The notes: generated by a model not told the origin, from the sequence alone. Counted from the first letter of the stretch, positions 14,574-31,640 are shown. The stretch is DNA of 32,000 nucleotides from Rhizobium helianthi (GCF_042680945.1 NZ_JBHUEQ010000003.1:88804-120803); one strand, 5' to 3'. Translations and numbers: made by a program.

Positions 14574-14591
14574 AAACTGGCTCCCCGGGCC
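14574..14591. repeat. attL core: 18-bp direct repeat AAACTGGCTCCCCGGGCC (duplicate of the tRNA-Asn 3' end)
   Basis: It is identical to 31623-31640, and the flanks diverge immediately on both sides. Confidence 0.85.
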
Positions 14592-14736
14592 TGAGATTTT
14601 GTAGCAACCAAGATAACCATTGCATCAACAGTGGAGTCTAAAACGCTATATTTTTCAACGGGTAGCTTGTCCATTGCGTCCATTCGGCCTATCTACATAC
14701 CGCCACCCAATAGTGGGAAAAAAGCGGGGAAGGTCA

Positions 14737-15915
14737 ATGGGGAGCCATACTCGGAACGTGCTGACTGTGAAGGGAATCGCGGCGAGCAAATCTAAGAAAT
14801 TGCGCGACGGTGGCGGGCTCTGGCTCGTTCAAAAAGGCGATGGTCGGTATTGGATCTTCTCATACACGCTCGCCGGTCGTCGTCGCGAGATGGGTATCGG
14901 CCCGCTTCATTCGGTCGGCCTTGCTGAGGCGCGCGAACGGGCCGCCAAGGCAAGGGAGATGGTCAAGGAAGGTAAAGACCCGATCCGTGACAAACGCCAG
15001 GCACTCGCCGAGCAGCCGAAGCCAAAGACATTCGGCGAGTACGCTGACAGCTTCATTGACGCAGCGGTGAAGGCTGGCCGCTGGCGAGGCGCGAAGACCG
15101 AAGCGCGATGGCGCAATCTGCTGGAAAATCACGCGAAGCCGATCCGTCACCGACCGATAGCGGACATAGACATTGACGACGTGAAGACTGCGCTGAAGCC
15201 GCTTTGGTGCATCAAGCAGGAAAGCGCCGAAAAGCTAAGGGAGTGCATCGAGCGGGTGCTGGATGCGGCCAAGGTGGAGAAGCTGCGGACGGGCGACAAT
15301 CCGGCTGCATGGAAAGGCAACCTTGAGCATGTGCTGCACAAGCCGGCCAAGGTGGAGGGCGAGGGGCACCATGCAGCTATGCCGCACGACCAGATCAGTG
15401 ACTTCATGAAGTCACTGGCCAGTGTCCAAGGCGTGTCGGCTCGCTGCCTTGAATTCGCGATACTCACAGCGGCCCGCGGCGGCGAGGCGAGGGGAGCGGT
15501 TTGGGCAGAATTCGACATGAAGGCGAAAGTCTGGACCGTTCCAGCCGCAAGGATGAAGACAGGCAAGACGCATCGCGTGCCGCTATCCAAACCCGCGATT
15601 GCGCTCTTGGAGCGCATGAAGGCGCAGTCTGTTAGCGAGTACGTTTTCCCGAGCGTCCGCAGCGGCAAGCCGTTGTCGGATATGTCTCTGGCGAAGGCGC
15701 TCACGACGGCGGGCGGGGGCGCCTATACTCCGCACGGGTTCCGCTCAACGTTCCGCGATTGGGCAACAGACGTCGCGCACGCGCCGCGAGAGATTGCAGA
15801 GGCGGCCTTGTCTCATGCCGTTGGTGATGCGGTGGAAAGAAGCTATGCGCGCTCAGATGCGTTGCAACGGCGCCACACTTTGATGGAGGAGTGGGGTAGA
15901 TACTGTTTCGGCTAA
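14737..15915 (+). CDS. int: tyrosine recombinase/integrase, P4-like with an N-terminal DUF4102-type arm-binding domain
   Basis: The start is set at ATG 14737 (MGSHTRNVLTVKGIAA..LRDGGGLWLVQKGDGRYWIFSY). The C-terminal catalytic region includes HRVPLS, HGFRSTFRDW and ERSY (catalytic Tyr). Confidence 0.92.
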   Translation: MGSHTRNVLTVKGIAASKSKKLRDGGGLWLVQKGDGRYWIFSYTLAGRRREMGIGPLHSVGLAEARERAAKAREMVKEGKDPIRDKRQALAEQPKPKTFGEYADSFIDAAVKAGRWRGAKTEARWRNLLENHAKPIRHRPIADIDIDDVKTALKPLWCIKQESAEKLRECIERVLDAAKVEKLRTGDNPAAWKGNLEHVLHKPAKVEGEGHHAAMPHDQISDFMKSLASVQGVSARCLEFAILTAARGGEARGAVWAEFDMKAKVWTVPAARMKTGKTHRVPLSKPAIALLERMKAQSVSEYVFPSVRSGKPLSDMSLAKALTTAGGGAYTPHGFRSTFRDWATDVAHAPREIAEAALSHAVGDAVERSYARSDALQRRHTLMEEWGRYCFG

Positions 15916-16040
15916 GGCAACCAAAGCGGCCGCGTTGACAACGGGCAATGTAACCGCCATCAATAACTACACCGGCGGAATAATTCACCGTCTGGATAGC
16001 ATCGGTTACAAACCCCTGTCAACACCTATTGGAGGAAAAA

Positions 16041-16253
16041 ATGAAATCAGACAACGATAATACCCCCGCACTCATTTCGCTAAACGACGCATGCCGCATG
16101 ACGTCCATGTCTCGCACCATGCTGAACCGTTACCGCGCGGAAGGGCGGTTCCCTGTTGCCGTTGATCTCGGCGATCGTCGCATTGCCTTCGTGCGGGAGG
16201 AAGTTACCGCCTGGATTGCCGCGAAGATTTCGGCGCGGCAGGTGGCGGCATGA
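16041..16253 (+). CDS. alpA: AlpA-family HTH protein (putative excisionase/regulator)
   Basis: GGAGG lies 5 nt upstream of ATG 16041. The segment LISLNDACRMTSMSRTMLNRYRAEGRFPVAVDLGDRRIAFVREEVTAWI fits the AlpA / phage Xis HTH_17 pattern. Confidence 0.8.
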   Translation: MKSDNDNTPALISLNDACRMTSMSRTMLNRYRAEGRFPVAVDLGDRRIAFVREEVTAWIAAKISARQVAA

Positions 16254-16570
16254 GCTCGGAGACGGATCAACCTAACGACATTCTGGATCTGGTAGACGCT
16301 GCAACTAGAGCGTTCCGAGGAGCAGCTTCGGTTGAGGATACAGCAGTCGGATGGGACTACTTCTCCCGCGTTGAAAGCTATGTTGAGATGACATGGCCGA
16401 ATGACAAGGATCTTTTGGATGTTCTTTATCAAGCGAAAAGGTACTTAAGTCAGTTCACGCTGGATCTGCGAAACGGAGTGCCGTCTCCGTTCAACGGATG
16501 GGCTTCCACCATGGGTCGCCTTAGGGCCATGGTGGATACTCCATATGGCCTGGACGGCTACCCCAAATAA
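16250..16570 (+). CDS. hypothetical protein
   Basis: 106-aa ORF whose start overlaps the alpA stop (ATGA). The composition is acidic and plausible for a protein. No family was recognised. Confidence 0.5.
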   Translation: MSSETDQPNDILDLVDAATRAFRGAASVEDTAVGWDYFSRVESYVEMTWPNDKDLLDVLYQAKRYLSQFTLDLRNGVPSPFNGWASTMGRLRAMVDTPYGLDGYPK

Positions 16571-16594
16571 CCCCACCACCAAAAGGAAACCCAG

Positions 16595-16855
16595 ATGAAA
16601 ATTCTCTCAATCCGCCCTTGTGACGAGGGCGGAAACACACTCGCATTGTTTGATGCGCAGTTGTCCGACGATATCCGAATGTTCGGGCTGAAGCTGGTGA
16701 AGACACCGCGCGGCCCGCGTGTTTATGCGCCATCCACGCGCGCCAGCAACGTTGCCACCTTTGCACCAGATTTTGCCGCAGCCCTAGCTCGCGCCGCTCA
16801 GGCAGCACTTTACGGAGAAGCCGAACACAATGTCAGCACTTGCAAAGCAGCCTGA
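16595..16855 (+). CDS. hypothetical protein
   Basis: 86-aa ORF with AAGGAAA upstream. Its 3' end overlaps the start of the next gene by 26 nt, so it sits in an operon context. Confidence 0.45.
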   Translation: MKILSIRPCDEGGNTLALFDAQLSDDIRMFGLKLVKTPRGPRVYAPSTRASNVATFAPDFAAALARAAQAALYGEAEHNVSTCKAA

Positions 16856-18089
16856 TGCTTCACCATTGCAGCCGGGTGACGAAGTTACCCATGAGACATT
16901 CGGCCCCGCCACAGTCGAGCGCGCCGGTTCATTCACCTCTCTAATTGTGACGGTCGGCGGCACAAAGGAAATTGTTGCCAACAGCGGGCTGAAGGTCGTC
17001 AAACTGAAGGCGGCAAACGACAACACGCGGGCCGCCGACACATTTCCCTTGGTTAATCCGGCGCAATGGCATGGCCAGCCAATCCCGCCGCGGCAGTGGT
17101 TTATCGAGGATCTTATCCCGATGGGCCAGGTCACCTTACTTTCGGGGGACGGTGGTGTCGGCAAGTCGCTGCTGGCGCTTCAACTTGCAGCAGCCGCGGC
17201 CATGTCGCTGGACACCTTAAATCTTGAACCGTGGGCAGGTCGCGCCTTGTATGTCGGCGCTGAAGACGATCAGGACGAGTTCCTGCGGCGCCTGGCCGAC
17301 ATCACCAAGGCGCACGGCAAGGATCTGGACCATTTGCTTTTGCTGCGGCTGGTTCCGCTTGCCGAGCGGGACGCGCTGCTCTCCGTTCCCAACAAAAGTG
17401 GCACGATGGAGCCGACTCCTCTTTGGCGCGGCATCGCTTCCTTTGCGGCGGAATTCACGCCGCGTCTTATCGTGTTGGATACGAGCGCGGATTTGTTTGG
17501 CGGCGACGAGATCAAGCGCGCGCAGGTCCGCCAATTCATCGCAATGCTTCGCAAGCTTGCCATTGAGCTGCAGTGCGCCATCGTTCTGCTGTCACACCCA
17601 TCGGTACAGGGAATGCAGACCGGCACCGGCATTTCCGGGTCCACCGGCTGGTCCAATAGCGTTCGTTCGCGGCTGTATCTGACGCGGGACAAGGACGACG
17701 CCGACTTGCGAATTCTGAAGGTTATGAAATCGAACTATGGCGAAGCCGGCAAGGAGCTTCGACTACGCTGGAAGGATGGTGCTTTTGTCCTAGACGATGG
17801 CAAGCCGAACGTTGGATCAATGCTATTGGCTGCAAAGGCCGACCGCGTTTTTATTGAAACGCTCGCAAAGCTATTTCAGCAAGGCCAGAAGCTGAGCCCT
17901 AGCCCATCAGCAACTTATGCACCGAAGCTCATCGCCGCGCACCCCGATGGCGCTGGAATATCGAAAAAGGAACTGGTGGCGGCACAGCAGCGACTACTTG
18001 ACGCGAGACGAATCCGAATCGTCGAGGACGGTCCAGCATCGCGCCGCACGCGGCATCTTGTGGTGTCTGAAAGCGAGATTTCAGACTGA
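16830..18089 (+). CDS. RepA-like / AAA_25 (RecA-DnaB superfamily) replication ATPase with an N-terminal Tudor-like (UvrD C-terminal-like) segment
   Basis: It has Walker A LLSGDGGVGKS, Walker B RLIVLDTSADLF, and the SHPS motif typical of RepA/AAA_25 proteins. The N-terminal GDEVTHETFGPATVE resembles the GxxVxHxxFGxGxV motif of PcrA/UvrD C-terminal Tudor domains. Confidence 0.75.
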   Translation: MSALAKQPDASPLQPGDEVTHETFGPATVERAGSFTSLIVTVGGTKEIVANSGLKVVKLKAANDNTRAADTFPLVNPAQWHGQPIPPRQWFIEDLIPMGQVTLLSGDGGVGKSLLALQLAAAAAMSLDTLNLEPWAGRALYVGAEDDQDEFLRRLADITKAHGKDLDHLLLLRLVPLAERDALLSVPNKSGTMEPTPLWRGIASFAAEFTPRLIVLDTSADLFGGDEIKRAQVRQFIAMLRKLAIELQCAIVLLSHPSVQGMQTGTGISGSTGWSNSVRSRLYLTRDKDDADLRILKVMKSNYGEAGKELRLRWKDGAFVLDDGKPNVGSMLLAAKADRVFIETLAKLFQQGQKLSPSPSATYAPKLIAAHPDGAGISKKELVAAQQRLLDARRIRIVEDGPASRRTRHLVVSESEISD

Positions 18090-18129
18090 CCTTCAGACTA
18101 CCTTCAGACCCCTTCAGACCCCTTCAGAC
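18080..18129 (+). repeat. iteron-like direct repeats: five TTCAGAC cores (four as CCTTCAGAC); candidate origin
   Basis: The cores start at 18080, 18092, 18103, 18113 and 18123, giving spacings of 12, 11, 10 and 10 bp. The array straddles the stop codon of the RepA-like gene. Confidence 0.7.
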
Positions 18130-18164
18130 TGCCCTGTCCACACACCCCCTTGTACCCCCTGTAG

Positions 18165-18499: not shown

Positions 18500-18607
18500 T
18501 TGCGGCCCGACAATCTCGCGCGAGCAATCAAGAATTATGTGGCGTGACTGTCCCTTTCTTCATTTCCGCAGGGTGTAACAGTGAAGGTGTCGCGCCGCGA
18601 CCTTGCC

Positions 18608-18630
18608 GCCTGAGTACGGACTGGCACACC
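18608..18630 (+). repeat. 23-bp perfect direct repeat, copy 1 (GCCTGAGTACGGACTGGCACACC)
   Basis: It is identical to 18818-18840, exactly 210 bp downstream. Confidence 0.9.
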
Positions 18631-18817
18631 CCGCGGCGCGGTAGGTGTGGGAAGCAATTGCTTTCAGAAATCCCACCCCCATTGCTACCTGAGTGTACAC
18701 TCAAACCGCGACGCCACGGGCAACATAAAGCGAAGCCAGTTGGCGTGACGCATGCGCCGAATGTCGCCAGAGTGACTAGGGGCAGGAAGCAAACGCTTCC
18801 AGAAATCCCCCATAGCA

Positions 18818-18840
18818 GCCTGAGTACGGACTGGCACACC
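18818..18840 (+). repeat. 23-bp perfect direct repeat, copy 2
   Basis: It is identical to 18608-18630. Confidence 0.9.
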
Positions 18841-19100
18841 TCCCGACTGACTAGGGGTGAGACCACCGGCATCGGTGCGAGTACGTACCCAAACCCTGAA
18901 TTTGCGGGCAGTATTATAGACGCAGCATAGGGTCCGCCACGCGCACTGAAGTCACCAAGGGGTGAGCCGTCTTTTTTCTTTTGCCGCTCCCGGATGTACG
19001 GACGGCAATTAGATCCGCCAGCGCGCTGCGCGCTGCTGGTGTCGATCGAGCCGCAGCGGTGGTTATTCCTTTTCACCGCTGCGGCCACCGTTCCAGATCA

Positions 19101-19174: not shown

Positions 19175-19594
19175 ATGGCCTGGACTTCTCGCGACTTCAG
19201 TGTCGCAGAGGCCGCGCAATGCGTTGGCCTCCACCGCACGCACCTTGACGTCATCATCTCTCGCGCCAACCCGCTCGCCACGCTCTTTTCCGAAAAGCGG
19301 AAAGGGCGGCGCTGGTTTTCGGTGCGCGATATCACAGTTCTCCGGATTGCCTACGAACTGGAACGCGCCGGACGTGCCTGGAATACGGCGATTGCGCAGG
19401 CTTTCGAACACACCGGCACGCAGCCGCCCCCGGACGCGCTTCTGGTGGTTCCTGTCGCCAGTGTGTCGGCAACGTCAGGACGCGTTCTAACGGGCCTCCC
19501 TGACCCGCTGCCGTCGTCGTCTTTCATCACCGTTCCCATAGGGCGCATTGCCGCCGAAATAATGGAGGCAATCGATGCCCTGGCCATTCAGTAA
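19175..19594 (+). CDS. MerR-like HTH protein (possible late-gene regulator)
   Basis: GGAGG lies upstream of ATG 19175. The segments FSVAEAAQCVGLHRTHLDVIIS and WFSVRDITVLRIAYELERAG fit a MerR-type HTH-wing pattern. The 3' end overlaps the portal start by 20 nt. Confidence 0.55.
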   Translation: MAWTSRDFSVAEAAQCVGLHRTHLDVIISRANPLATLFSEKRKGRRWFSVRDITVLRIAYELERAGRAWNTAIAQAFEHTGTQPPPDALLVVPVASVSATSGRVLTGLPDPLPSSSFITVPIGRIAAEIMEAIDALAIQ

Positions 19595-20765
19595 GCCGGC
19601 GCCTGCCGTAGTCATCGAAGAGAAATCCCTTGGCGATCCAACCGCCGAACTGCTCGAATTGTTCGGCGCCATCCCCGCCGGCACGACGATCAGCAACGCG
19701 GAAGCCTTGTCAGTGCCAGCCGTGTCCGCTGCCGTTCGCATCATCTCGGAAGCCGCGGCAAGCCTGGACGTCAAGTTGAAGCGGAAAGTCGGCGGTTCCG
19801 AAACGGACGTTGAAGACCATCCGGCGATGAAGCTTCTAACCGGGCAAGCGAACGGCTGGACGTCCGGATTCGAGATCATCCGCGATTTGGTGGCCGGCGC
19901 GCTCACCAAGGATCAAGGCGGAGTTGCCTACGTGACGAAAGTCAACGGCGAACCGCGCGAAATCATCCAGTATCGCGACGGCGTTTTCACCGTTGATTAC
20001 GACGACGTAACAGGCGAGCCGAAATACAGGATAAGCGGCCAGCCGGTTGCTGCGGGCTACGTGCTGCATGTTCGCGGGCCGTTCACGAAGTGTCCCCTTA
20101 CGATGGCCCGCAGCGCGATTGCCACGGCAAGCGCAATGGAGGCGTACGCCAATGGCCTGTGGTCGAATGGTGCGCGTCCGGGCGGGGTTATCGAAAGCCC
20201 TAAGGCCATTGGTGCAAAGTCGGCCCGCGAAATCTTGGCCGGTTGGAAAGCCGCTTTTGGTGGTTCCGCCAACGCAGGAAAGACCGGTCTGCTTTGGGAC
20301 GGAATGACCTACAAGCAAATGGCGCTGACGTCGGTTGACGGCGAGTTCACGGCCAGCCGCACGTTCCAGATTTTGGAAATTGCCCGCGCCTTCCGTGTGC
20401 CGCCAGGCATGCTTTATGAGCTCTCTCGCAATGTCTGGGGTAATTCCGAGCAACAGGGCAAAGAGTTCATTTCATACACACTAATCCCATGGCTGCGGAT
20501 CCTTGAGGGCGCATTTAACCGCGCGCTGCTCACCGATGCCGAGCGTGTCGAATATCGGTTCATGTTCGATATCGATGACACCAGCCAAGCAGATCTAACC
20601 GCTCGCGCCACTTCGATTTCCACGCTTATCACGGCACGCGTGATGAACCCCAACGAAGCGCGCGAATGGCTTGGCATGCCACCTCGCGACGGTGGCGACG
20701 TTTTCGCAAATCCCGCCATCGACACCGCGCCAGCCAATGACAATCAACCAAAGGAGGCGGCGTGA
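19575..20765 (+). CDS. phage portal protein, HK97 family
   Basis: 396 aa with typical HK97-type portal blocks (..PAVSAAVRIISE.., GGVIE.P, LLWDGMTYKQM, LEIARAFRVPP.ML, PWL..LE). Confidence 0.9.
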   Translation: MPWPFSKPAPAVVIEEKSLGDPTAELLELFGAIPAGTTISNAEALSVPAVSAAVRIISEAAASLDVKLKRKVGGSETDVEDHPAMKLLTGQANGWTSGFEIIRDLVAGALTKDQGGVAYVTKVNGEPREIIQYRDGVFTVDYDDVTGEPKYRISGQPVAAGYVLHVRGPFTKCPLTMARSAIATASAMEAYANGLWSNGARPGGVIESPKAIGAKSAREILAGWKAAFGGSANAGKTGLLWDGMTYKQMALTSVDGEFTASRTFQILEIARAFRVPPGMLYELSRNVWGNSEQQGKEFISYTLIPWLRILEGAFNRALLTDAERVEYRFMFDIDDTSQADLTARATSISTLITARVMNPNEAREWLGMPPRDGGDVFANPAIDTAPANDNQPKEAA

Positions 20766-22294
20766 CCGTCGAATTTCTAGAGTTCAAGGCCGCCTTCACG
20801 GCGGATGACACCGGCCTCGTCGAAGGCAAGGCCTGGGACTTTTCCAGCGCTGACCGCGTTGGCGACATCATTGAGCCTGCAGCCTTCGCCAGTGCCATCG
20901 GCAAGTCTCTCCCCATGCTCTTCGCTCATGACCAGGCGCAGGTCGTCGGCACGTGGGAAAGCGTCGCCGTTGAGGCGGACGGCCTGAAGGTCAAAGGCAG
21001 GCTGCTCGTCGACGACGTCGCACGGGCCAAGGAAGTTCGTGCGCTTCTGCGTGCGAAGTCGGTCACGGGGCTGTCTGTCGGCTTCATGACGAAAAAGGCG
21101 GCGCCTCGCAAAGGTGGCGGCCGCACCATCACCGACCTGGACCTCATGGAAGTGTCCCTCGTCGCAATCCCCGCGCACCCAGGCGCGCTAATCTCTTCCG
21201 TGAAGGAATTCCCCATGACCACCGAAACCAAGACCATTGAAGATCTGGCCGTCGAGCTCAAGGCTGCAAACGACAACATCCTGGCCGTTACCAAGCGGCT
21301 CGAAACCGCCGAAACCGCATTGGCACGACCTAACATTCTCCGCGCTGCGAACGACAATGAACCCACTCCGGAACGCAAGGCCTTCACCGGCTTCCTGCGT
21401 CATGGCGTCGAACGTATGGACGCAACCGAGGTCAAGGCGCTTGTCGTGTCCGACGACACCCGCGGCGGCTATTTGGCGCCTGCAGAGTTTCAGACGGAAA
21501 TCCTGAAGAACCTTGTTGAATACAGCCCGGTTCGCATGGCAGCCCGCGTTGGTTCTACCGCTGCCTCGTCGGTCATCCTGCCGAAGCGCACCGGCACGCC
21601 GACGGCAAGCTGGGTCGGAGAAGTAGAAACCCGCAGCGAGACCAACTCGACATATGGTCAGGTTGAGATTCCCGTTCACGAAATGGCCGCCTATGTCGAC
21701 GTGTCCGTCCAACTTCTTGAGGACGCGGCCATCAACGTCGAAGCCGAAGTCGCCAGTGACCTCGCAGAAGAGTTCGGCCGTCTTGAAGGTGTCGCACTGG
21801 TCAACGGCAACGGCTTCAAAAAGCCCACAGGCATCATGTCCGCGGCCGGCATCACGGAGGTTATCTCTGGTTCCGGCACCGCTATCACTGCGGATAGCCT
21901 CATCAGCCTCATGTATGATCTCCCGGCATTCTATCGCAACAACGGCGCTTGGATGATGAATGGCACAACTCTTGCCGCCATCATGAAACTGAAGGACTCC
22001 ACGAACCAGTATTTGTGGCAACCAAGCTATCAGGCAGGCCAGCCGTCGCTTCTTCTCGGGCGTCCCATTGTAGAAGCAATCGACATGCCGGACATTGCCG
22101 CCGACGCGTTCCCGATCGTTTTTGGCGACTTCAACCGTGCTTACCGAATTTATGACCGTGTCGCGATGTCGATGCTGCGTGATCCATACACGCAGGCCAC
22201 CACCGGGAAGGTTCGGTTCCATGCACGGCGCCGCGTCGGTGCCGACGTCGTGATGGCTGAAGCGCTGCGCAAGCTGAAGGTTTCGGCATCCTAA
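20762..22294 (+). CDS. HK97-family prohead protease (S78) fused in frame to an HK97-family major capsid protein
   Basis: The GTG start overlaps the portal stop (GTGA). Residues 1-150 carry the protease motifs LFAHD (His) and GLSVGF (Ser). The region from residue 152 (MTTETKTIEDL...) has a coiled delta-like segment and then the HK97 MCP pattern. An internal GAAGGA plus ATG at 21215 could also start the capsid protein separately. Confidence 0.88.
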   Translation: MTVEFLEFKAAFTADDTGLVEGKAWDFSSADRVGDIIEPAAFASAIGKSLPMLFAHDQAQVVGTWESVAVEADGLKVKGRLLVDDVARAKEVRALLRAKSVTGLSVGFMTKKAAPRKGGGRTITDLDLMEVSLVAIPAHPGALISSVKEFPMTTETKTIEDLAVELKAANDNILAVTKRLETAETALARPNILRAANDNEPTPERKAFTGFLRHGVERMDATEVKALVVSDDTRGGYLAPAEFQTEILKNLVEYSPVRMAARVGSTAASSVILPKRTGTPTASWVGEVETRSETNSTYGQVEIPVHEMAAYVDVSVQLLEDAAINVEAEVASDLAEEFGRLEGVALVNGNGFKKPTGIMSAAGITEVISGSGTAITADSLISLMYDLPAFYRNNGAWMMNGTTLAAIMKLKDSTNQYLWQPSYQAGQPSLLLGRPIVEAIDMPDIAADAFPIVFGDFNRAYRIYDRVAMSMLRDPYTQATTGKVRFHARRRVGADVVMAEALRKLKVSAS

Positions 22295-22341: not shown

Positions 22342-22734
22342 ATGACCATGCGCGATCTTTCGCATAATCTAGGCGTCGTTCAGGCGCTCGCCCCCCAGGT
22401 GCTTTCGGCTACCGACACCAGCGCGGCCATCGACCTAATCGGTTTCGATTCCGCTGCCGTCGTCATCAGTACGGGCGCCATCGTTTCCTCTGGCAATTTC
22501 ACTGCGAAGCTCCAGGAGTCGGACACGACGACTTCCGGCGATTTCAGCGACGTTGCTGCTGCCGACCTGATTGGCACGCTGCCCACCGCGCTGGCTGCGT
22601 CGTCTGTCTACAAGCAAGGATACGTCGGCAACCGCCGTTACATCCGCCTGGTGACCACGAAGAATTCCGGCACGTCCATTGCGGTCGGTGCCGTGGTCGT
22701 TAAGGGCCATGCTGCTTCGCGGCCTGTAGCATAA
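22342..22734 (+). CDS. hypothetical head-module protein
   Basis: 130-aa ORF directly after the capsid gene with GGAAAGGA upstream. An alternative ATG lies at 22348. No family was recognised. Confidence 0.55.
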   Translation: MTMRDLSHNLGVVQALAPQVLSATDTSAAIDLIGFDSAAVVISTGAIVSSGNFTAKLQESDTTTSGDFSDVAAADLIGTLPTALAASSVYKQGYVGNRRYIRLVTTKNSGTSIAVGAVVVKGHAASRPVA

Positions 22735-22916
22735 CCTATCGGCGGGGGTATCCGAGGTTGCGCCGCGCGACCTAAAGAACGTGCGCGCCCGCCATCGACA
22801 TCATCGCGCGCGTTTACGCGGAAGTGGGGAGTTGTGACCCCTGCGCACGAGGCGGCTGCTTCGCCTCGCTGGCCGTCAGGGTGATCCTGGCGGCCTTGCA
22901 CCTAGAGGATCAATCA

Positions 22917-23414: not shown

Positions 23415-23705
23415 ATGGCAATCGTCTCTTTGGCTGACGTAAAGGAGCATCTGCGTCTGCTCCATGACGACGACGACGCACTAATTGAGGACCAGATTCC
23501 GGCTGCCGTCGCTCACCTTGAGACGCTGCTGGGATATGTCATCGAAGAAGAATTTACCACCGTTCCCGACGATCTGAAACAGGCCGTTCGCGCGCTGGTT
23601 GCTCACTGGTACGAAAACCGGGAAGCAACTGGCGAAAACCTATTCGAAGCGCCGTTCGGAGTTTGGGAAATCGTGCGCGAACGGCGCAGCTACGCATGGG
23701 AGTAG
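23415..23705 (+). CDS. gp6-like head-tail connector protein
   Basis: The start is set at ATG 23415. MAIVSLADVKEHLRLLHDDDDALIEDQIPAAVAHLE...AVRALVAHWYENRE is the characteristic Phage_gp6 (DNA-packaging/head-tail connector) pattern. Confidence 0.8.
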   Translation: MAIVSLADVKEHLRLLHDDDDALIEDQIPAAVAHLETLLGYVIEEEFTTVPDDLKQAVRALVAHWYENREATGENLFEAPFGVWEIVRERRSYAWE

Positions 23706-23709: not shown

Positions 23710-24117
23710 ATGACACGAGGACGTAAGCCCGATTTCGTCACGATAGACGGCGCGCTCACAAAGGCGCCAGCCGCTCCCTCGTGGCTGCCTACGCATGCCA
23801 AATCCGAATGGCGACGCATCATGCCGCGCCTCGTGCAGGGAGGCCGGATCGCGAACCATGAGCTCTCTACGGTCGAAGACTATTGCCTCTGCGTGGCCCG
23901 CAAGCGCGAGGCTGAAGCGGTCCTGCAGGCCGAGGGGCTGACCTACCTGTCGCCCACGGGCGAGCTCAAGCGCCGGCCAGAAACAACCATTATCAAAGAA
24001 GCAATCGAGGCCAGCCGCCGGCTCGCCAGCGAGCTCGGACTTACGCCTGCAGCGCGGGCGCGAAATAAGGGAGGCGCCGCAATCGATGACGAAGACGACG
24101 CCTTATCTTCCATCTAG
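23710..24117 (+). CDS. terS: phage terminase small subunit, P27 family
   Basis: The start is set at ATG 23710, with GGGAG 7 nt upstream. MTRGRKP......AP.WL...A..EW.R..P.L...G......D...L..YC is the typical P27-family TerS pattern. Confidence 0.85.
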   Translation: MTRGRKPDFVTIDGALTKAPAAPSWLPTHAKSEWRRIMPRLVQGGRIANHELSTVEDYCLCVARKREAEAVLQAEGLTYLSPTGELKRRPETTIIKEAIEASRRLASELGLTPAARARNKGGAAIDDEDDALSSI

Positions 24118-25708
24118 TCACCCGTCCTGGCTCTTTGACGATTCACCAATTCCAGATCCGCACGGCAAAGGGCAGCGCGCCGTTGATTTTCTTCGCGCGC
24201 TGAAGCACCCCAAGAGCACCGCGCCTGGTCGAGCATTTCAGCTAGATCCGTGGGTCGAAAGGCTTGTGCGAAAGGTCTATGGCGACACAAAGCCGGACGG
24301 CACCCGCCGCATCAAGACGGTTTTCGCCCTCATTCCTCGCGGCAATCGCAAGACGACACTTGGCGCTGCTTTGTGCCTGCTGGCGCTAGGGCCGGAGCGC
24401 GTTCCGGGGTCGCAGGTGGTTAGCGCAGCCGTTGACCGCGATCAGGCGCGTATCGCGCTTGAAGAGATGAAGGGCGTGATCGCGGCTCATCCAAGGCTCG
24501 AAGCTGCGTTCCATGTGCAGGACACCAAGAACCGGATAACGCACCGAAAGTCTTCGGCATTTTACCGCGCCATGTCAGCGGATGCCGCAACCGCTCACGG
24601 ACGCACGCCAGTTTTCGCACTGGTGGACGAATTGCACGCCTGGAAAAAACGCGACCTTTGGGACGCTATCAAGACAGGCCTTGTGAAGACGCCGGGCAGC
24701 TTGCTGGTAGTTACGACCACGGCAGGCATAGGCCACGAGAACATCGCGTATGAGACGTACAAATATGCGAAGGCAGTAGCGACCGGTCAGATTGAAGACG
24801 ATGCCTTCTTGCCCATTATATTCGAGGCGGATCCGAAGGAAGACTGGCGCGACGAGGCCGTGTGGCATCGCGTGAATCCTGGCCTATCCTGTAACCCGCC
24901 CTACCCGGACATTGTCGGCTTGCGCCAGATGGTGCGGGAAGCCGAACACAGGCCAGCCGATCGCGAAATGATCCGTCAACTGCACTTGAACGTGTGGCTG
25001 GACGGCGCTGCTAACCCGGAGTGGTCCCTCGACGTTTGGGACGAGAACGCAGGCGAGCTTGATCTGTCCGAATTGGAGGGGCGGCCCGCTTGGGTGGGTG
25101 TCGACTTGGCAAAGAGAATTGACCTCTGCGCAGTCGCCATTGCCATCCCCATGGAGGACGGACGGACGGCGTTGCACGTTCAATCGTTCTGTCCGGCTGG
25201 CACAATTCGCAAACGCACTGACGGCGTTCCTTATCCGCTATGGCGCGACCAAGGCTACCTCACGGAATGCCCTGGAGACGCCATCGACCTCGAATTGGTG
25301 GAAAACTACATCCGCGGCCTCTGTGAGCGGTTCCAAGTCGAAGAAATCGCTTTTGACCGGTGGCACGCTCAAGACGTGATGAAGTCGCTTGAGGCGGATG
25401 GACTGCCGGTGGCGGAGTTTCCGCAGAACATCGCCACTTTCGCCCGCCCTGTTATTGACTTCGAAGCGGCCATGTTTGACCGAAAGCTTGTTCATGGCGG
25501 AAATCCGCTGCTGCGTTGGGCTGTAGGCAATGTCGTGCTTTACACCGACGGCAGCGGAAACCGGCGCCCGCTGAAAGAGAAATCAATCGACAAGATCGAC
25601 CCCGCAGTTGCCGCCATCATCGCCAACGGACGCGCCGCGCAAGGCGTTTCAGGCCGCTCAAGCTACGACGATGCGGATTTGTCCGATTTGTCGTTGTTTG
25701 CGGTTTAA
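24086..25708 (+). CDS. terL: phage terminase large subunit
   Basis: 540 aa. It has a Walker A-like PRGNRKTT, a Walker B VFALVDELHAW, and a C-terminal nuclease domain. The start overlaps terS by 32 nt. Confidence 0.92.
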   Translation: MTKTTPYLPSSHPSWLFDDSPIPDPHGKGQRAVDFLRALKHPKSTAPGRAFQLDPWVERLVRKVYGDTKPDGTRRIKTVFALIPRGNRKTTLGAALCLLALGPERVPGSQVVSAAVDRDQARIALEEMKGVIAAHPRLEAAFHVQDTKNRITHRKSSAFYRAMSADAATAHGRTPVFALVDELHAWKKRDLWDAIKTGLVKTPGSLLVVTTTAGIGHENIAYETYKYAKAVATGQIEDDAFLPIIFEADPKEDWRDEAVWHRVNPGLSCNPPYPDIVGLRQMVREAEHRPADREMIRQLHLNVWLDGAANPEWSLDVWDENAGELDLSELEGRPAWVGVDLAKRIDLCAVAIAIPMEDGRTALHVQSFCPAGTIRKRTDGVPYPLWRDQGYLTECPGDAIDLELVENYIRGLCERFQVEEIAFDRWHAQDVMKSLEADGLPVAEFPQNIATFARPVIDFEAAMFDRKLVHGGNPLLRWAVGNVVLYTDGSGNRRPLKEKSIDKIDPAVAAIIANGRAAQGVSGRSSYDDADLSDLSLFAV

Positions 25709-25714
25709 GGGAAT

Positions 25715-25740
25715 GCCACGCCCATAGCTCAGGGCGTGGC
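25715..25740. terminator. hairpin between convergent terL and lipoprotein genes
   Basis: A 9-bp stem GCCACGCCC (25715-25723) / GGGCGTGGC (25732-25740). There is no T-run, and the right arm overlaps the lipoprotein 3' end. Confidence 0.35.
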
Positions 25741-26127
25741 AGGCGGAGCACGCTTGAAAGCTATGCCCGTTGCGATAACAGCCGACCAGCAATTCTTAAC
25801 TATTGCGCCCGGGTCCGGCACGACTTGCACGGAATGCACGGTGTCAAAGCCTTTTGCCGCTGCGTCCTGCTTCATCAATGCGGTAGCGTTTTCTGGGCTT
25901 GGGTCTGGATCCCAAAGCTTGTTCTTGCATGAATGGCCGGACACACGAGCGGTAGCGGCGCCGAGTGGCGGGCCAGTGTCAACGATAGCAACGGCCACTG
26001 TATCGCGCACGTCCTTCTTGGGCTCAACCCAAGTGCGCGTCAGACTTACATCAGAGTTTTGCGCAGTCGTGCCGCATCCGGCAAGGGCAAGCGCAGCCAC
26101 GAATGGCACCAGCAACTTCGACTTCAT
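25729..26127 (-). CDS. lipoprotein on the opposite strand inside the structural region (moron), RcsF-like pattern
   Basis: It has a lipobox (MKSKLLVPFVAALALAGC). The segment VSGHSCKNK..DPDPS...A..LMK..AA.KG...V........PG....C....I..G.AF aligns by eye with the E. coli RcsF C-terminal domain (VSGDSCQAS..DSPPS...). Confidence 0.65.
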   Translation of the reverse strand: MKSKLLVPFVAALALAGCGTTAQNSDVSLTRTWVEPKKDVRDTVAVAIVDTGPPLGAATARVSGHSCKNKLWDPDPSPENATALMKQDAAAKGFDTVHSVQVVPDPGAIVKNCWSAVIATGIAFKRAPPATP

Positions 26128-26277: not shown

Positions 26278-26490
26278 ATGTCAAATTCCACTGCATATGT
26301 GCTCAGCGTGTTTGCTGGAAACCTCACTGATGCGCTCGTCAAATCGGGTGCGCTAACGCCCGCGGCAGCTCGCGAAGTTTTTGCCGAAGTTGTCAACCGC
26401 CGAGATGCTGTGGTGGATGAAGAAGCGGCGAATCTAACTAAGTATTTTTCTTGCGGCTCAACTGAGTTTTGGCCGGAGGAGGCGCGCTAA
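26278..26490 (+). CDS. hypothetical small protein translationally coupled to the tailspike gene
   Basis: GGAGGG lies upstream of ATG 26278. The protein is 70 aa, and its stop overlaps the next start (TAATG). Confidence 0.5.
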
Positions 26491-29162
26491 TGGCACTGCT
26501 TTCCTACCAGTCACAGGATATCTTTGCGCCTGCCAATGAAAACGGACAGCTGCGCTCGCCGTCTTTGCAGGAAGTGCAGGTTTGGGGCACGGAAATTGAG
26601 GCGCTTGTTGACTCCATTGCGACCTCAGCGGCAATCTTTGACACGCGCGCAAACCTTTACTCGTCGCTTGCCTATGCGGCCAACACGTTGGCGTGGGTGG
26701 TGAATGACGCTACGGCGGCATACAACGGCATCTATCGCAAGTCGGGCGCTTCCGGCTCTGGTTCATGGACGCGCGTTGCTGATCTGCCTTACAGCTTGAT
26801 TGTGGCGAGCAATTCTGGCGCCGGTACGGCAAACGCCATCGTAGCCACCACGGCTATTCCAGTCTCGGAATCCGCTCTTGTGCTGCTGAATGTTGCGGCA
26901 AACAACACGGCAAGTCCGGTGACAGTAGCGTTCAACGGTGGCTCCGCCCTGACCGTGAAGGCCAACAGCGGCAACGACATCGTACCAGGCGGCTTGGTCT
27001 CCGGCATGTTGTTGCTTGGTCGTGTGTCTGGTTCTACATTCAGGCTTGTTAGCGATCAGGCTAGCTCTGCGATCCAAGCCGCCGCCGAAGCGGCTGCAAA
27101 TCAAGCCGCGGCGGAGGCTGACCGTGCAGAAGCTGCGGCGACGGTTGCGTCTGGCGCGATGACCACCGTGCTCGATCCACAGTTCGCCACGCTTGCGGCT
27201 GCCTCTGCGTTCTCTCCTGCTGTGGCCCCGGACTACATACGCACGGCTGGCTATTCCGCTGCTGGAGATGGTGGCGGCGCTCTTTACAAGAAGGTTGCAT
27301 CCGGGCCAAGCCACGCCGGAAAGTTCTCCATCACACTAAGCGGTGGCGGGACAGCGTGGTATGAGTTGGCTAACGGTCAACCGATCTATGCGGAGATGTT
27401 CGGTGCTGTGGGTCACCAGACGGATGCTGCGGCTCTTGCAGATGACGGGACGGTTACCACGCAGGCGATCATCAATGGGCGAGCCTTCCTTCGTGGTAGG
27501 TCAACCGCCCTGAGTACGGATGGTATCAGCGGCAAAGCGATCACCGCCTATGCCTCCGGTGTTCTCAATCTCGGAAGAGGAATTTTCTGCGTTAAGCCAG
27601 ATATGCTCGCTACGGATCAAGATATTGGCTTCATCATCCGAGGACAGGGCAATTCTGGTCGCACCAACTATATGCGTGGGCTGACCACCCTGCTTATTCG
27701 GGGAGCTTCTTCTGGATATGGTCTACGCTGGTATGGCAACGGCGGGCGAAGCGGCGGACTTGAAGATTTAGACCTCTGCTACGAAAGCGCATCGTTCACA
27801 GGTGACATGCTTGACATCATGGGTGGCGTTGGCACGTCCCCGCGGCGCGTAAGTTTTGACAGTTTCGGCAAGACGGGCGGGACAGCGCTATTTACGGCGC
27901 GCTCCAACGTGTCAATCGCGTACGAAGAGTTCTTCCACCCGAAAGATTGCACCTTCAGTGGTGCCAATATCAGCGTCTACTCCCCTTCTACTAACGGGGA
28001 GAAAGTCGTATCTAGACTGACTGGTTCCATCAGCGGAAATACCTTGACTGTGACAGCCCTTAACGAGGGCAATCTTGACGTAGGGCAAAGGCTATACGGC
28101 ACAGGTGTTGCTGAGGGAACCGCGATCACCGAACTTGGCACTGGATCTGGAGGGGTTGGCACGTATACCGTGAACATCAGCCAGTCGGTGTCTTCCCGTG
28201 CGATGACGACTGATATCTCTTTCGGCGGAAGTTGCACGGAGATCGACGCAACCAACGTTTTTTACGATTGCGGCGCCAAGTACGTAGAGCATCGAGCCGA
28301 TAAGGCTCGCTATAACTTCCAGTTCAGTGGGGTAATCAATCCGATACGCAAGGCAAGTACGACAGCAATTGATCTGAGAAACGTAAACACTGTAAGCTTA
28401 GTCGGAATTATGATGCACGGTTCTGTCGGGTTCGGTGCGTCGGATCGCTGGATTTATCTGGAAAATTGCACAGGGAGCCTGTGTGATAATCAGTTTGGTC
28501 CTGGGGCGCCGGAAGCTGCTTATGTTCTGAACTGTCAAATGGAAATCAGTAGTAACTTCCTGCACAATGAAGCCCTAGGATTTGTTTTGCTTGGGGGTGT
28601 AATTAACGGCAAGTCAAACCGCTTCAGTGGATCGGGCATTGGTTGGCGTGTTGCACCTGCCGCGAAGTTAACGGGTCAGATTGGTCCCGACGTGTTCGAC
28701 GCAACGATGACGACCTCCTATCTCATTGACCCGCCGAGCAGTCTGGCGCAAATGCGTGTTAACTACGATAAAGACCTCGATCGCAGCACAGGAAAGTTCA
28801 GTATCGCTTCAGGTTCACGCAACGTGCAAATACTTGGCAGTGGCGAGCGTGAGTACACTGATACTACGGGAAATTACTCAACGTTTGATACTGGCAAAAC
28901 GCTGATTATGAACGCGTCTGGGGCCATGAATTATACTGTCCCCCCACCATTTCACAACTGTGAACTTATGATCTACAAGCCGGTTGGTTTCAGTCTCACA
29001 CTCAACACCAGTTCCGCAAACAGGTTCAGTATCGGGTCGGGCGGAACCAAAACGCAGTTAACGAGTGCCGCTACTGATATCGGTGCATTCGCTAAGCTCA
29101 GGGGATTAGGAACTTCTGACTGGATTGTTGAGAGCCTTGTGGGGACTTGGACATCCGCCTGA
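26490..29162 (+). CDS. tail fiber / tailspike-like protein with a pectate-lyase-type beta-helix (putative depolymerase or receptor-binding protein)
   Basis: 890 aa from ATG 26490. After an N-terminal anchor region comes an Ala-rich coiled coil ([24 protein letters not shown]). This is followed by the motif [20 protein letters not shown], typical of Pectate_lyase_3/tailspike domains, and then long beta-helix-like repeats. The 3' third is visibly lower in GC. Confidence 0.78.
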
Positions 29163-29222: not shown

Positions 29223-29723
29223 TTAGCCAGACCGTCTACGGAGCCGAGCCTTCAAGCCGTTGCCTGGTGGCGCAAGCACGATGATGCTGATGTCAACAAA
29301 ACCGTTATCTCCGACCCAGACTGCATAGAGTTCGCCCGCCACGGGTAAACCTTTATCGATCAGGTCGCGATTTATCTCTCTGGCTAGATCCCTTTCGAGG
29401 TAGCCGATTTGCCATTCACGTTGGCCAGCGAATCCCATCACAGCGATGGCGTTTGCGTCATATCTATTACTGGGCTCGGGAATGAGCCTCACGCCGTATA
29501 TCAATCCGCCCCTTTCCGCTGCTCTGACCGCAGCTATGAAAGCGGAAACGTCCCTTTTTCGGTGCTGGACACCAGCAACTTTCACAACGGTCGTTGTCTG
29601 CACCCAATTCCCATCGGGCATGTGACGATGCTGCCCAAAACGCCCCGAAGCTTGCGCACCTAAAGGCGCCGTTTCGTTCGCATTCGGTGAGCTATATCCG
29701 AACAGCCAACCCCACAGGCTCAT
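29223..29723 (-). CDS. HIRAN domain-containing protein
   Basis: The start is set at ATG 29723 (MSLWGWLFG). The core VKVAGVQHRKRDVSAFI....GVRLIPEPSNRYDANAIAV......IGYLERDLA fits the HIRAN pattern (VGxxxy...L.REP.N.yD.nAI.V....G.iGYl). Confidence 0.7.
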   Translation of the reverse strand: MSLWGWLFGYSSPNANETAPLGAQASGRFGQHRHMPDGNWVQTTTVVKVAGVQHRKRDVSAFIAAVRAAERGGLIYGVRLIPEPSNRYDANAIAVMGFAGQREWQIGYLERDLAREINRDLIDKGLPVAGELYAVWVGDNGFVDISIIVLAPPGNGLKARLRRRSG

Positions 29724-29832: not shown

Positions 29833-30429
29833 TCAGGAACGGGTGCGCCACGTCCGTTCGCGGTAGATTTCCGTGCGGCCTTCGTCGGTGATGTGCCAAT
29901 GCTGCCTTCCGTCCGCATCCTTGCCGCCAGCGCGCACGCAGCCGACCTTGGCTATGTATTCCATCGTTTTCACGCCGGCATCGGGTATCACGTCGGTCGT
30001 AGTGCAATCGGGGTGGTCGATCATAAAGGCGAGGACGCGCAGCTGCACCGCATTCAGCCCGTGCCGCGGCTTGAGTTTGTCGCGTTCCGCCTTGCGTGCT
30101 CGCCAGCTATCCACGGTGCCGCGCTTGGGATTTGGGTTGGGCGTGCGTGGTGGGGAAAAACTGCCGCTGCCGAACTTGCCGTGTTCACGTTCCCATCGGT
30201 CAAATTCGTCCTCTTGATTGTGGTTCACGGCGAGCCCGCCGATGGCGTTAAGTTTGTCTTCAATTGCCGCCTTGTCCCATCTACGCGTGCCGGGAATAGG
30301 CGGCGGCATGATGTGGGTGCGCACCCACATTGAGAACGTGGATGGGGCAATACCGCAAAGCGCTGCGGCTTGTGGGCGGGACAGGAGGCGGGGCTCGATC
30401 TTCATTGGCGGGTTCTTCGGCGCTTCCAT
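29833..30429 (-). CDS. DNA-binding protein: N-terminal AlpA/Xis-like HTH plus a C-terminal winged-helix-like domain
   Basis: The segment LLSRPQAAALCGIAPSTFSMWVRTHIMPPPIPGTRRWDKAAIE is excisionase/AlpA-like. The C-terminal LNAVQLRVLAFMIDHPDCTTTDV...HWHITDEG looks MarR/wHTH-like. Confidence 0.55.
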   Translation of the reverse strand: MEAPKNPPMKIEPRLLSRPQAAALCGIAPSTFSMWVRTHIMPPPIPGTRRWDKAAIEDKLNAIGGLAVNHNQEDEFDRWEREHGKFGSGSFSPPRTPNPNPKRGTVDSWRARKAERDKLKPRHGLNAVQLRVLAFMIDHPDCTTTDVIPDAGVKTMEYIAKVGCVRAGGKDADGRQHWHITDEGRTEIYRERTWRTRS

Positions 30430-30651: not shown

Positions 30652-30888
30652 TCAATCGGAAGGATTGCGAAGGCGAACGCCCAAGCCGCCCGTAGTCGTT
30701 TCGCCATCAGCTAGAAAGATAACATGTGTTTCTAGCACCTTGCGCAGTGCTTCCAGAGTCGATTGCTTCGCGTCCGCTCCGTTCTCGATTCGTGTGATTG
30801 TGTTCGCAGTTACGCCAGCAAGCCGGGCCAACTCGCGAACCCCTAGACCCACCGCGGCCCGCGCCATTTTTAATTGAACAGCCTTCAT
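30652..30888 (-). CDS. XRE-family HTH transcriptional regulator (cI/Cro-like; candidate master repressor)
   Basis: The start is set at ATG 30888. The segment LKMARAAVGLGVRELARLAGVTANTITRIENG is a canonical HTH_XRE. Confidence 0.8.
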   Translation of the reverse strand: MKAVQLKMARAAVGLGVRELARLAGVTANTITRIENGADAKQSTLEALRKVLETHVIFLADGETTTGGLGVRLRNPSD

Positions 30889-30891
30889 TTT

Positions 30892-30958
30892 GGTACCTTG
30901 TACAAATATGTATTGACACGGAACCAAAAATAGCTATCGTGTCGGTACAGTGTACAAA
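30892..30958. promoter_or_regulatory. divergent promoter/operator region with two 15-bp direct repeats
   Basis: The repeats GGTACCTTGTACAAA (30892-30906) and GGTACAGTGTACAAA (30944-30958) match at 13 of 15 positions and start 52 bp apart. They flank TTGACA (30913-30918), a 16-nt spacer, and TATCGT (30935-30940) on the plus strand. Confidence 0.45.
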
Positions 30959-30992
30959 CACACTGATACGAAATCAACAGCGAGGCGCAAGG

Positions 30993-31391
30993 ATGCGAAC
31001 CGACCCGATTGGACAACCCTCCGACAGACTGCTCCTGCCAAGACGGCTTGTCCCAAGACGTGGGGCGCAGCTCGCCAATATTCAAAGCGCGCCTCGCGCC
31101 GATTTTCACCATCGCGTTACTGACGACGCGATGGCCCCGACTTACCGCCTGGACGATATTCTGTGCTGCGTCGCCGTTGACGCATTTTGCTGTGAGGGTG
31201 TCTACGTGATGGCACGCTCAGAAGTATTTCGATGCCGACGCGAGGGCGGTGTCATCGTCATGACACGCGACAACCCGGATTTTTTTAGCCGACGATGCGA
31301 CGTAAACTCTTTTGTCGACCTTGCGCCCGCGCTCGTGGTCGCGGACGTTCGCTTGTTACGTCCCGGTTGCTATCGCGACCTACAAAACTAG
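30993..31391 (+). CDS. S24 (LexA/cI C-terminal)-like protein with degenerate catalytic residues
   Basis: The start is set at ATG 30993. VTDDAMAPTYRLDDIL aligns with the V.GDSM.P....GD motif, with Ser replaced by Ala. No Lys is evident at the expected position (FRCRRE). The protein has no HTH domain. Confidence 0.45.
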   Translation: MRTDPIGQPSDRLLLPRRLVPRRGAQLANIQSAPRADFHHRVTDDAMAPTYRLDDILCCVAVDAFCCEGVYVMARSEVFRCRREGGVIVMTRDNPDFFSRRCDVNSFVDLAPALVVADVRLLRPGCYRDLQN

Positions 31392-31574
31392 AGCAAATTA
31401 CAGATTTCATGCCGCCTCGGCACCACCCTTGGGGCAATCCGGCCCATAGGGCGGCATGAGCGAACCAGCGCGGCCCACCAACTTCCGCAAGGAAGCGCAG
31501 CAGGTCAGCCCAAACCGTCGGTCTCAGGATCGGCGGTTTGCGGCGTTTTAAAGCGGGGAGAAAAAGTGGGGAAG

Positions 31575-31615
31575 AAGCACCTGTCCTCGGATTATCTCAA
31601 CGAAAACAGGTGCTT
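31575..31615 (-). terminator. 10-bp inverted repeat just inside attR; element-supplied hairpin downstream of tRNA-Asn
   Basis: AAGCACCTGT (31575-31584) / ACAGGTGCTT (31606-31615) with a 21-nt loop. On the minus strand it follows the tRNA 3' end by about 11 nt, and a TTTTT run comes 9 nt after the stem. Confidence 0.4.
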
Positions 31616-31622
31616 ACTTCTC

Positions 31623-31640
31623 AAACTGGCTCCCCGGGCC
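31623..31640. repeat. attR core: 18-bp direct repeat AAACTGGCTCCCCGGGCC
   Basis: It is identical to 14574-14591 and covers the last 14 nt of tRNA-Asn plus 4 nt downstream. Confidence 0.85.

Follow-up and report, generated by a model that had tools for sequence, protein, structure and literature searches.

A 17-kb element integrated at a tRNA-Asn gene of Rhizobium helianthi is probably a functional capsid-forming satellite, of the type of those phage-inducible chromosomal islands that form capsids (cf-PICIs) and of a distinct alphaproteobacterial lineage. It lies in a stretch of 32,000 nt (GCF_042680945.1, NZ_JBHUEQ010000003.1:88804-120803), called here the window, whose numbering is used throughout. 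Judged by its genes, it would most likely spread by borrowing tails from another phage. A first reading of the window, made from the sequence only, had proposed a candidate cf-PICI-type satellite and not a decayed prophage. This proposal has come through every computational test applied, with corrections to the gene order, to the joining proteins and to the picture of the family, which is a continuum.

The unit is bounded by a direct repeat of 18 nt, AAACTGGCTCCCCGGGCC, of which the window holds two exact copies only (14574-14591 and 31623-31640); none of 100 shuffles of the window contained it. With one mismatch allowed, the repeat reaches 21 nt. attL (14574..14594) is a displaced copy of the 3' end of the tRNA-Asn gene, and attR (31623..31643) lies within the 3' end of the gene itself, tRNA-Asn(GTT) (31627..31701, minus strand), the integration target and the only Rfam match in the window. 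The distance from the start of one copy to the start of the other is 17,049 bp, so that the borders and the length first proposed both hold.

The center of the element is a tightly packed operon on the plus strand, annotated, like all open reading frames (ORFs) of the element, by profile searches against Pfam, PHROGs and NCBIfam. Its first gene, which also opens the conserved core, encodes h139 (19175..19594), a putative MerR-like helix-turn-helix (HTH) protein of 139 aa according to its UniRef name and a candidate late regulator. The portal protein follows (19575..20765; Phage_portal, E 1.5e-76), then a 510-aa S78 prohead protease fused to the HK97-fold major capsid protein (MCP) (20762..22294; Peptidase_S78 and Phage_capsid in one ORF), a 128-aa jellyroll decoration or cement protein (22348..22734; phrog_5707, DUF2190-like) and an HNH endonuclease, a packaging accessory (22914..23270; phrog_2323, E 2e-15). 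The operon ends with a gp6-like head-tail adaptor (Ad1; 23415..23705; Phage_connect_1), the P27-family small terminase subunit TerS (23710..24117; Terminase_4, E 1e-22) and the large subunit TerL (24086..25708; phrog_9, E 2e-138). The ORFs are intact and densely arranged, with overlapping start and stop codons, as had been described.

This head and packaging set had been called complete, and the portal, protease-MCP, HNH, gp6, P27 TerS and TerL are indeed all present. A head-closure protein is absent: tblastn with that of EcCIEDL933, the prototype cf-PICI, located in the EDL933 chromosome, and with the Phage_HCP of the tail-bearing relatives described below (class B) gave no match in the element at E<=10. 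gp6 is the only head-tail joining gene and abuts terS, leaving no room between the two.

The phrog_5707 protein was the sole conserved unknown of the structural block; its ORF, directly after the MCP, does not encode a connector. Its AlphaFold model (28 homologues; predicted local distance difference test 88.9) is a jellyroll, its structural neighbors in the PDB include the cement protein of Bordetella phage BPP-1 (3j4u_H) and a Carin1 capsid chain (8cjz_A), and its homologues are named 'DUF2190' or 'head decoration protein' in the databases. Hence, it is a capsid decoration protein and not a part of the tail or neck.

The HNH family assignment comes from PHROGs only, yet the ORF is conserved, with 74-89% identity in relatives and a ratio of non-synonymous to synonymous substitutions (dN/dS) of 0.05-0.10. 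The ORF is missing from the Logan gene calls and, judging by gaps in the numbering of locus tags and accessions, from those of PGAP. At the C-terminus, its motif is ...CNRRK in place of the usual ...CH..K.

Between the HNH and gp6 genes lies a non-coding block of ~95 nt (23320..23414; GGTCGTCAATTTCCCGCC...GGACCAGCGTGGG...TAAATAGGAATTTCAACCTATG), whose DNA is 72-77% identical in eight relatives. gp6, directly downstream, is just 56-62% identical at the protein level among the close relatives examined. The block is a candidate cos or late regulatory site.

No ORF of the element matches the tail-tube, sheath, tape-measure, baseplate, terminator, holin or endolysin families of Pfam, PHROGs or NCBIfam, and relatives' neck and tail proteins, used as tblastn queries, gave only noise (E<=10). 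A tail-shaft or lysis homologue, which the sequence-only reading had named as a possible refutation, was not found by this annotation. The tail tube, tape measure, distal tail protein and lysis cassette of a complete temperate siphophage are not among the genes recognized.

Relatives, Selection and the Wider Family

Homologues of the MCP are abundant in Alphaproteobacteria, and hundreds of related loci were retrieved there; 80 genome loci and 80 IMG/VR loci were gathered for comparison. All complete loci share the order portal - protease::MCP - (decoration) - HNH - (gp6) - TerS - TerL. At least seven close relatives, in Rhizobium, Hoeflea and Mesorhizobium, hold the same core as the window, and in the TerL tree the window clusters with elements of these three genera, all of them without neck and tail genes. 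Four tail-less relatives have mapped att repeats of their own, each at another tRNA gene: L083 occupies tRNA-Asn (repeat of 15 nt, unit of 17.4 kb), L082 tRNA-Ser (14 nt, 17.7 kb), L084 tRNA-Thr (50 nt, 18.1 kb) and L004 tRNA-Lys (48 nt, 18.1 kb). At the DNA level, the core from h139 to TerL (19126-25709) is conserved, whereas the arms around it, for integration, replication and cargo, have been swapped between elements.

Pairwise dN/dS values for the portal, MCP, decoration protein, HNH, gp6, TerS and TerL range from 0.04 to 0.25, at a dS of ~0.6 or more. gp6 is the most divergent of the core proteins, with 56-62% identity among close relatives vs. 81-93% for the rest. The low dN/dS makes a decaying prophage unlikely, and together with the own att sites and the swapped arms of the relatives, it argues for a mobile element under selection. 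Against a decaying prophage, in which pseudogenes, truncated modules, relaxed selection and strain-specific remnants would be expected, stand the intact ORFs, these values and an architecture that recurs in at least four further genomes, each time between att sites of its own. No ~40-kb prophage that could be the source of the unit was found among the ~160 loci. The element as a deletion derivative of such a prophage at tRNA-Asn, a possibility raised with the first proposal, was rejected on this ground.

A tRNA-Arg(TCT) gene lies just inside the right end of L082 (19624-19700), L083 (18458-18534) and L084 (20458-20534); the element of the window has none.

The wider family is less uniform. Among the 113 loci that could be scored, some of which were counted in both the genome and the IMG/VR collections, 29 are head only, 75 are of class B and 9 are intermediate. 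Class B adds genes for a tail assembly chaperone, for two paralogues of the major tail protein, for gp10-like, gp17 and head-closure proteins and for a tape measure of 650-780 aa with its chaperone; no Dit, Tal, distal-tail, fiber or lysis gene was recognized in them. Where the limits could be judged, these units measure ~17-18 kb. They share with the window the core order, the protease::MCP fusion, the decoration protein, HNH, gp6, P27 TerS and TerL, and carry the integrase gene at one unit end and a replication module of the AAA_25 or DUF3987 type. Class B occurs in Rhodobacterales and in some Hyphomicrobiales, for example in Cereibacter sphaeroides (L085, ~5750-22700) and Ancylobacter polymorphus (L086, ~2550-20500). 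Unusually, the tape-measure gene follows TerL in this class, and a chaperone gene separates the portal from the MCP. Such elements may be satellites that steal tail tips only, or minimal phages.

A test of the IMG/VR contigs for terminal repeats gave one locus, L156 (IMGVR_UViG_3300001605_000437), assembled as a circle of ~17.2 kb: it has 17,292 bp with a terminal direct repeat of 95 nt, and its tape measure lies on the opposite strand. Frameshifts interrupt its MCP and TerL, which makes it poor evidence.

As most of the wider relatives have genes for neck, tail tube and tape measure within ~17 kb, the family is a continuum and not uniformly tail-less. In the TerL tree, head-only forms are found in several branches, and the sister of the window clade is a class B element (L086). 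Tail-shaft genes must thus have been lost or gained repeatedly.

With such a sister, the window clade could also be a cryptic, non-functional remnant of a class B ancestor, which has lost its neck and tail genes and whose islands excise at most and are neither packaged nor transferred. The gp10-like, gp17, head-closure and tape-measure genes of the Ancylobacter lineage would fit such a loss, as would the neck and tail genes of 75 of the 113 scorable loci and a head-closure protein found in class B and EcCIEDL933 but not in the window. In PHASTER-style surveys of rhizobia, moreover, small regions related to phages go down as 'incomplete' or 'questionable' prophages (PMC11476347). However, all core ORFs are intact, and their dN/dS is low with synonymous sites near saturation. 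The tail-less layout has been kept over three genera, in units whose att sites are independent and whose integration, replication and cargo modules have been exchanged, and this presupposes continued mobility; the layout also recurs in several branches of the TerL tree. A remnant of this kind is considered unlikely.

Comparison with Described Satellites and Phages

The genes of EcCIEDL933 follow the order int, HTH, DUF927 Pri-Rep, MCP, protease, portal, head closure, connector, HNH, TerS (P27), TerL. Like the element of the window, it is an island of 15-17 kb with int and an AlpA-type HTH gene at the left, followed by a replication module, and without tail-shaft or lysis genes; in both, the morphogenesis block precedes HNH, P27 TerS and TerL. 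Proteobacterial cf-PICIs in general are described in the cf-PICI paper with the morphogenetic genes first and hnh-terS-terL thereafter. As the block plan of the window equals that of EcCIEDL933, the gene order is not permuted, contrary to what had been stated. The differences lie within the blocks: in the window, the portal comes first, the protease and the MCP are fused, and gp6 stands after the HNH gene instead of before it. The jellyroll decoration protein and a 5.8-kb cargo arm with a tail fiber are found in the window only. The replicon differs as well: its AAA_25 RepA with iterons, an analogous module, does not match the DUF927 Pri-Rep of EcCIEDL933, in agreement with the first description.

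The portal, MCP, protease, gp6, TerS and TerL of the two elements are all distant homologues. Identities are low, 25-33% overall (portal 31%, MCP 27%, TerL, TerS and gp6 29% each), and the AlpA protein is 33% identical to the HTH protein of EcCIEDL933. They are no higher than those to true phages, among which the best deposited ones reach 36-42% for the MCP and 32-34% for TerL; this argues against membership in the gammaproteobacterial cf-PICI clade. The distance from deposited phages, for its part, is in line with the argument for cf-PICIs as deep lineages distinct from phages.

Several of the characters by which cf-PICIs are recognized are present: an island of ~10-20 kb with int and att, AlpA, an own MCP, protease and portal, an own HNH, TerS and TerL, and the order of the blocks. 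cf-PICIs are defined, in addition, by two head-tail joining proteins, an adaptor together with a connector or closure protein, which set the tail specificity; the window has gp6/Ad1 only. Furthermore, tail and holin/lysis genes are forbidden components in SatelliteFinder, whose cfPICI model would probably count a tail fiber as 'tail'; no tail-shaft, baseplate or lysis gene was found in the element, but it carries an intact fiber gene. With one joining protein, an ambiguous tail component and a position that is probably outside the prototype clade, the element is not placed in a described cf-PICI lineage. The adaptor and connector proteins of cf-PICIs are reported to diverge and to set the tail specificity (bioRxiv 10.1101/2025.02.11.637232), and the adaptor is the fastest-evolving core protein both there and among the close relatives of the window.

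The fusion of protease and capsid had been presented as a departure from cf-PICIs. The fusion is real, but it has an NCBIfam model and has already been noted in the cf-PICIs of Firmicutes (Lactococcus/Enterococcus, Bacillus/Staphylococcus), where the capsid is merged with the prohead protease as in the window. These elements, likened to the window by description only, belong to another phylum and have other regulators. The cf-PICI groups are regarded as independent origins of one lifestyle. In comparison, the rhizobiophage with the closest MCP, RHph_X2_25, has the canonical order HNH-TerS-TerL-portal-protease-MCP, in which protease and MCP are encoded separately.

P4-like satellites and classical PICIs resemble the window in their P4-type integrase, AlpA, integration at a tRNA gene or att site, and replication protein with adjacent iterons. 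They have no MCP, portal or TerL of their own, and remodel the capsids of their helpers; homologues of sid, psu, delta, cpm and rpp were not seen in the element. A P4-like element was rejected: only the integrase type and AlpA are common, and the window has its own capsid genes. Marine virion-encapsidated integrative mobile elements (VEIMEs) were set aside as relatives, as they encode no major capsid genes.

A gene transfer agent was rejected on the presence of an integrase, att sites and a replicon, and on integration sites that differ between genomes. More generally, the element could be self-sufficient, either as a tail-less capsid that transfers DNA by other means or as a host-domesticated particle maker resembling gene transfer agents, for which Alphaproteobacteria are known. 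The element has a complete set of head and packaging genes, and free tail-less capsids of cf-PICIs are reported to be released in nature (bioRxiv 10.1101/2025.02.11.637232). An own integrase, att sites and replicon, variable cargo and tRNA targets that differ between genomes are instead the signature of a selfish mobile element and not of a host locus that was domesticated. Lysis genes are lacking, and the retention of a portal adaptor and of a fiber makes sense only with a tail. Self-sufficiency is thus regarded as highly improbable.

In the literature on cfPICIs and other phage satellites in Rhizobium, Rhodobacterales and Alphaproteobacteria, no description of this family was found, and the cfPICI surveys consulted do not mention Alphaproteobacteria as hosts.

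Tail Fiber and Proposed Cycle

The right-hand cargo arm, 5.8 kb long, begins after TerL. It contains a mosaic tail fiber gene (26490..29162, plus strand; 890 aa; phrog_38233 'tail fiber', E 5e-92), whose start is probably at 26490, where the 3' end of a 70-aa ORF (26278..26490, plus strand) overlaps it. Residues 1-190 are 56-64% identical to the fiber N-termini of phages 16-3 (p023), phi3LM21 (p48), NV1.1.1, RHph_X2_25 and others, and residues 273-888 show ~31% identity to fibers of Pseudomonas phages. The product had been called the element's own tailspike: a long fiber ORF does exist, but it encodes a mosaic fiber with an N-terminal anchor of the 16-3 rhizobiophage type.

Phages 16-3 and phi3LM21 are complete siphophages of 41-60 kb, compared here over their tail regions; the N-terminal ~190 aa of the fiber are 56-61% identical to their p023 and p48. 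In both phages, the anchor-bearing gene is the last of the tail module, directly behind the central fiber gene h, and a complete Sinorhizobium meliloti prophage has a fiber with a 16-3-type anchor in its tail module as well. Because the anchor matches a product of the tail module of these phages, it points to a 16-3-type rhizobiophage as the helper. In Rhizobium sp. NXC24 (L084), a 727-aa fiber also follows TerL; its anchor is 55% identical to that of the window and its C-terminus is different. An IMG/VR locus (L091), maybe the same element as L084, bears such a fiber too. The kept anchor and the divergent C-termini suggest that the protein works in receptor binding and attaches to a tail of the 16-3 type. 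A Foldseek search with the model of the fiber N-terminus gave one weak tail-fiber or baseplate match (9b45, E 8e-3, TM-score 0.25), which is suggestive only. Searches of PDB sequences with the decoration protein, the fiber and h139 returned nothing meaningful.

Between TerL and the fiber lies, on the minus strand, a gene for a 132-aa lipoprotein (25729..26127; signal/lipobox sequence, weak RcsF match), which possibly has a surface or exclusion function. Alternatively, the element could be a satellite whose fiber is not structural: the fiber would be conversion or exclusion cargo together with the lipoprotein, a poison of the helper's tail tip, or a recent capture from a 16-3-type prophage. Its gene lies in the hypervariable arm, behind the antisense lipoprotein gene and outside the conserved core, and among the close relatives only the window and L084/L091 have a fiber. 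The anchor module also moves on its own, as a capsid-less element of Rhizobium sp. (L181) bears the same domain. cf-PICIs are further reported to encode tail-assembly interference. On the other hand, the ORF has its full length of 890 aa, and an anchor 55% identical between two satellites with differing C-termini is the usual pattern of receptor-binding proteins. A non-structural fiber appears improbable. A phage-derived cassette of fiber and exclusion lipoprotein is unsupported, since neither the lipoprotein nor the 70-aa ORF had a match in the phage-database searches.

L181 (JAVTIX010000001.1, ~3000-16800) is a small integrative element with int, an HTH_17 protein, many small ORFs and no capsid genes. 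It encodes a 255-aa protein with the 16-3-type anchor, behind which lie ORFs of 424, 280 and 212 aa, and may represent a second kind of element carrying helper-compatible fiber parts.

For a functional satellite, the following cycle is proposed. De-repression, probably triggered when a helper phage interferes with the XRE/AlpA circuit, would allow the integrase, with AlpA or a second Xis-like HTH protein, to excise the 17-kb unit from tRNA-Asn. The RepA-like AAA_25 helicase would replicate the circle from the iterons at the 3' end of its own gene. The operon from h139 to TerL would make small HK97-fold capsids of portal, self-processing protease::MCP and jellyroll cement protein, into which HNH, P27 TerS and TerL would package unit-length DNA, cut probably at the conserved block upstream of gp6-terS. 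The filled heads would present only the satellite's Ad1; head closure, neck, tail and lysis would come from a co-resident siphophage. Finally, the satellite fiber would mount on the tail tip of a 16-3/phi3LM21-type helper and determine which receptor the chimeric particle recognizes.

A number of points weigh against this reading. Every step of the cycle, from excision and replication to the formation of capsids, packaging and dependence on a helper, is deduced from gene content, and eight small ORFs have no assignment. Most wider relatives have tail-shaft genes, and the window clade may represent a recent state of loss. There is a single head-tail joining protein, vs. an adaptor plus a connector or closure protein in cf-PICIs, and heads without a stopper may fail to retain their DNA if no compatible stopper comes from the helper. 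The fiber gene, placed behind an antisense lipoprotein gene and apart from the late operon, is found in 2-3 of ~12 close relatives and may be incidental cargo. The role of p023 of 16-3 as a fiber rests on annotation, and another paper labels this protein a kinase. In R. helianthi, no second protein with the fiber anchor was found among the few matches listed in the protein search. gp6 gave only marginal matches to mEp235-type adaptors and no close match in known rhizobiophages; the fiber anchor is therefore the sole link to a helper.

A broader idea is put forward tentatively: Alphaproteobacteria may hold a large, apparently undescribed family of ~17-kb satellites of graded autonomy, from head only to head, neck and tail shaft, the latter stealing just the tail tip and lysis. 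Among the head-only members, some would bring their own helper-compatible fiber, so that the satellite decides which cell is infected.

What has been worked out about capsid-forming satellites comes so far from enterobacteria and Firmicutes. Should the element be such a satellite, the lifestyle would reach rhizobia and other Alphaproteobacteria, in regions now filed as 'incomplete prophages'. The family would then provide a natural series (head only, head with tail shaft, full phage) for the study of how satellites originate from phages or revert toward them. In current cf-PICI work, the host range follows whichever tail is hijacked; a fiber borne by the satellite would be a new way to set it. 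For rhizobial ecology, the element would be a probable vehicle of high-frequency gene transfer with a variable cargo arm, and its fiber anchor names a concrete guess for the helper, temperate phages of the 16-3/phi3LM21 type.

Early Genes, Regulators and Surroundings

The left arm opens with a P4-type tyrosine integrase gene (14737..15915, plus strand; Arm-DNA-bind_3, Phage_int_M and Phage_integrase; PRK09692, E 5e-43), 140 bp from attL. Its ORF is open from 14620, and the ATG at 14737 is the likely start. On the same strand follow an AlpA-family regulator or excisionase-like HTH protein (16029..16253; Phage_AlpA, E 6e-10), a 106-aa ORF (16250..16570) without Pfam, PHROGs or PADLOC match, an 86-aa ORF (16595..16855) weakly conserved in some relatives, and the RepA-like AAA_25/DnaB-type ATPase (16830..18089; AAA_25, E 7e-34; primase/helicase PHROGs), a putative replication initiator-helicase. 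The family profiles thus bear out the early genes named from the sequence (integrase, AlpA, AAA_25 ATPase and XRE-type HTH).

The iterons adjoining RepA, five copies of (C)TTCAGAC with a spacing of 10-11 nt (18080..18129), form a candidate replication origin. Four copies of CTTCAGAC lie in phase at 18091-18129, and a fifth, degenerate copy at 18080 overlaps the repA stop codon. In the whole window, the motif has 5 matches vs. 0.74 expected, which upholds the earlier observation.

The non-coding stretch of ~1 kb between the replicon and the late operon contains, at 18500-19170, an imperfect direct repeat pair of ~80 nt (18605..18690 and 18777..18862) together with GAGTACGGAC/GAGTACGTAC motifs. 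For these repeats and motifs in the non-coding DNA of 18.1-19.2 kb, no Rfam family was found, nor conservation in relatives.

At the right end of the cargo arm, the minus strand encodes a HIRAN-domain protein (29223..29723; profile match), taken as cargo, a 198-aa HTH or excisionase-like regulator (29833..30429; phrog_66, E 3.5e-7) and a candidate XRE-family HTH repressor of 78 aa (30652..30888; HTH_31, HTH_3). PADLOC, run on the cargo and unknown ORFs, found no defense system, only generic HTH and sub-threshold HIRAN/PDC-M03B matches. Divergent from the XRE gene, a 132-aa protein (30993..31391, plus strand) shows weak similarity to the LexA/S24 C-terminal domain (LexA in the PDB, E 0.04), with DDAM, as judged by eye, in place of the expected GDSM. 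The gene pair at 30652-31391 has the look of a CI-like repressor that is split and non-cleavable; L084 has a similar pair at its right end.

A scan for promoters and terminators gave no more sites than shuffles did. The 14.5 kb to the left of the element are host DNA, with genes for LysR, Crp, 5'-nucleotidase, AsnC, alanine dehydrogenase and a pyridoxal phosphate (PLP) enzyme. NCBI records of R. helianthi identical in sequence exist for several proteins of the window, among them TerL (WP_377395337.1) and the fiber (MFD1744061.1, named 'hypothetical'). The only other assembly of the sequence, a Logan contig (L001), begins at 18124, inside the run of iterons.

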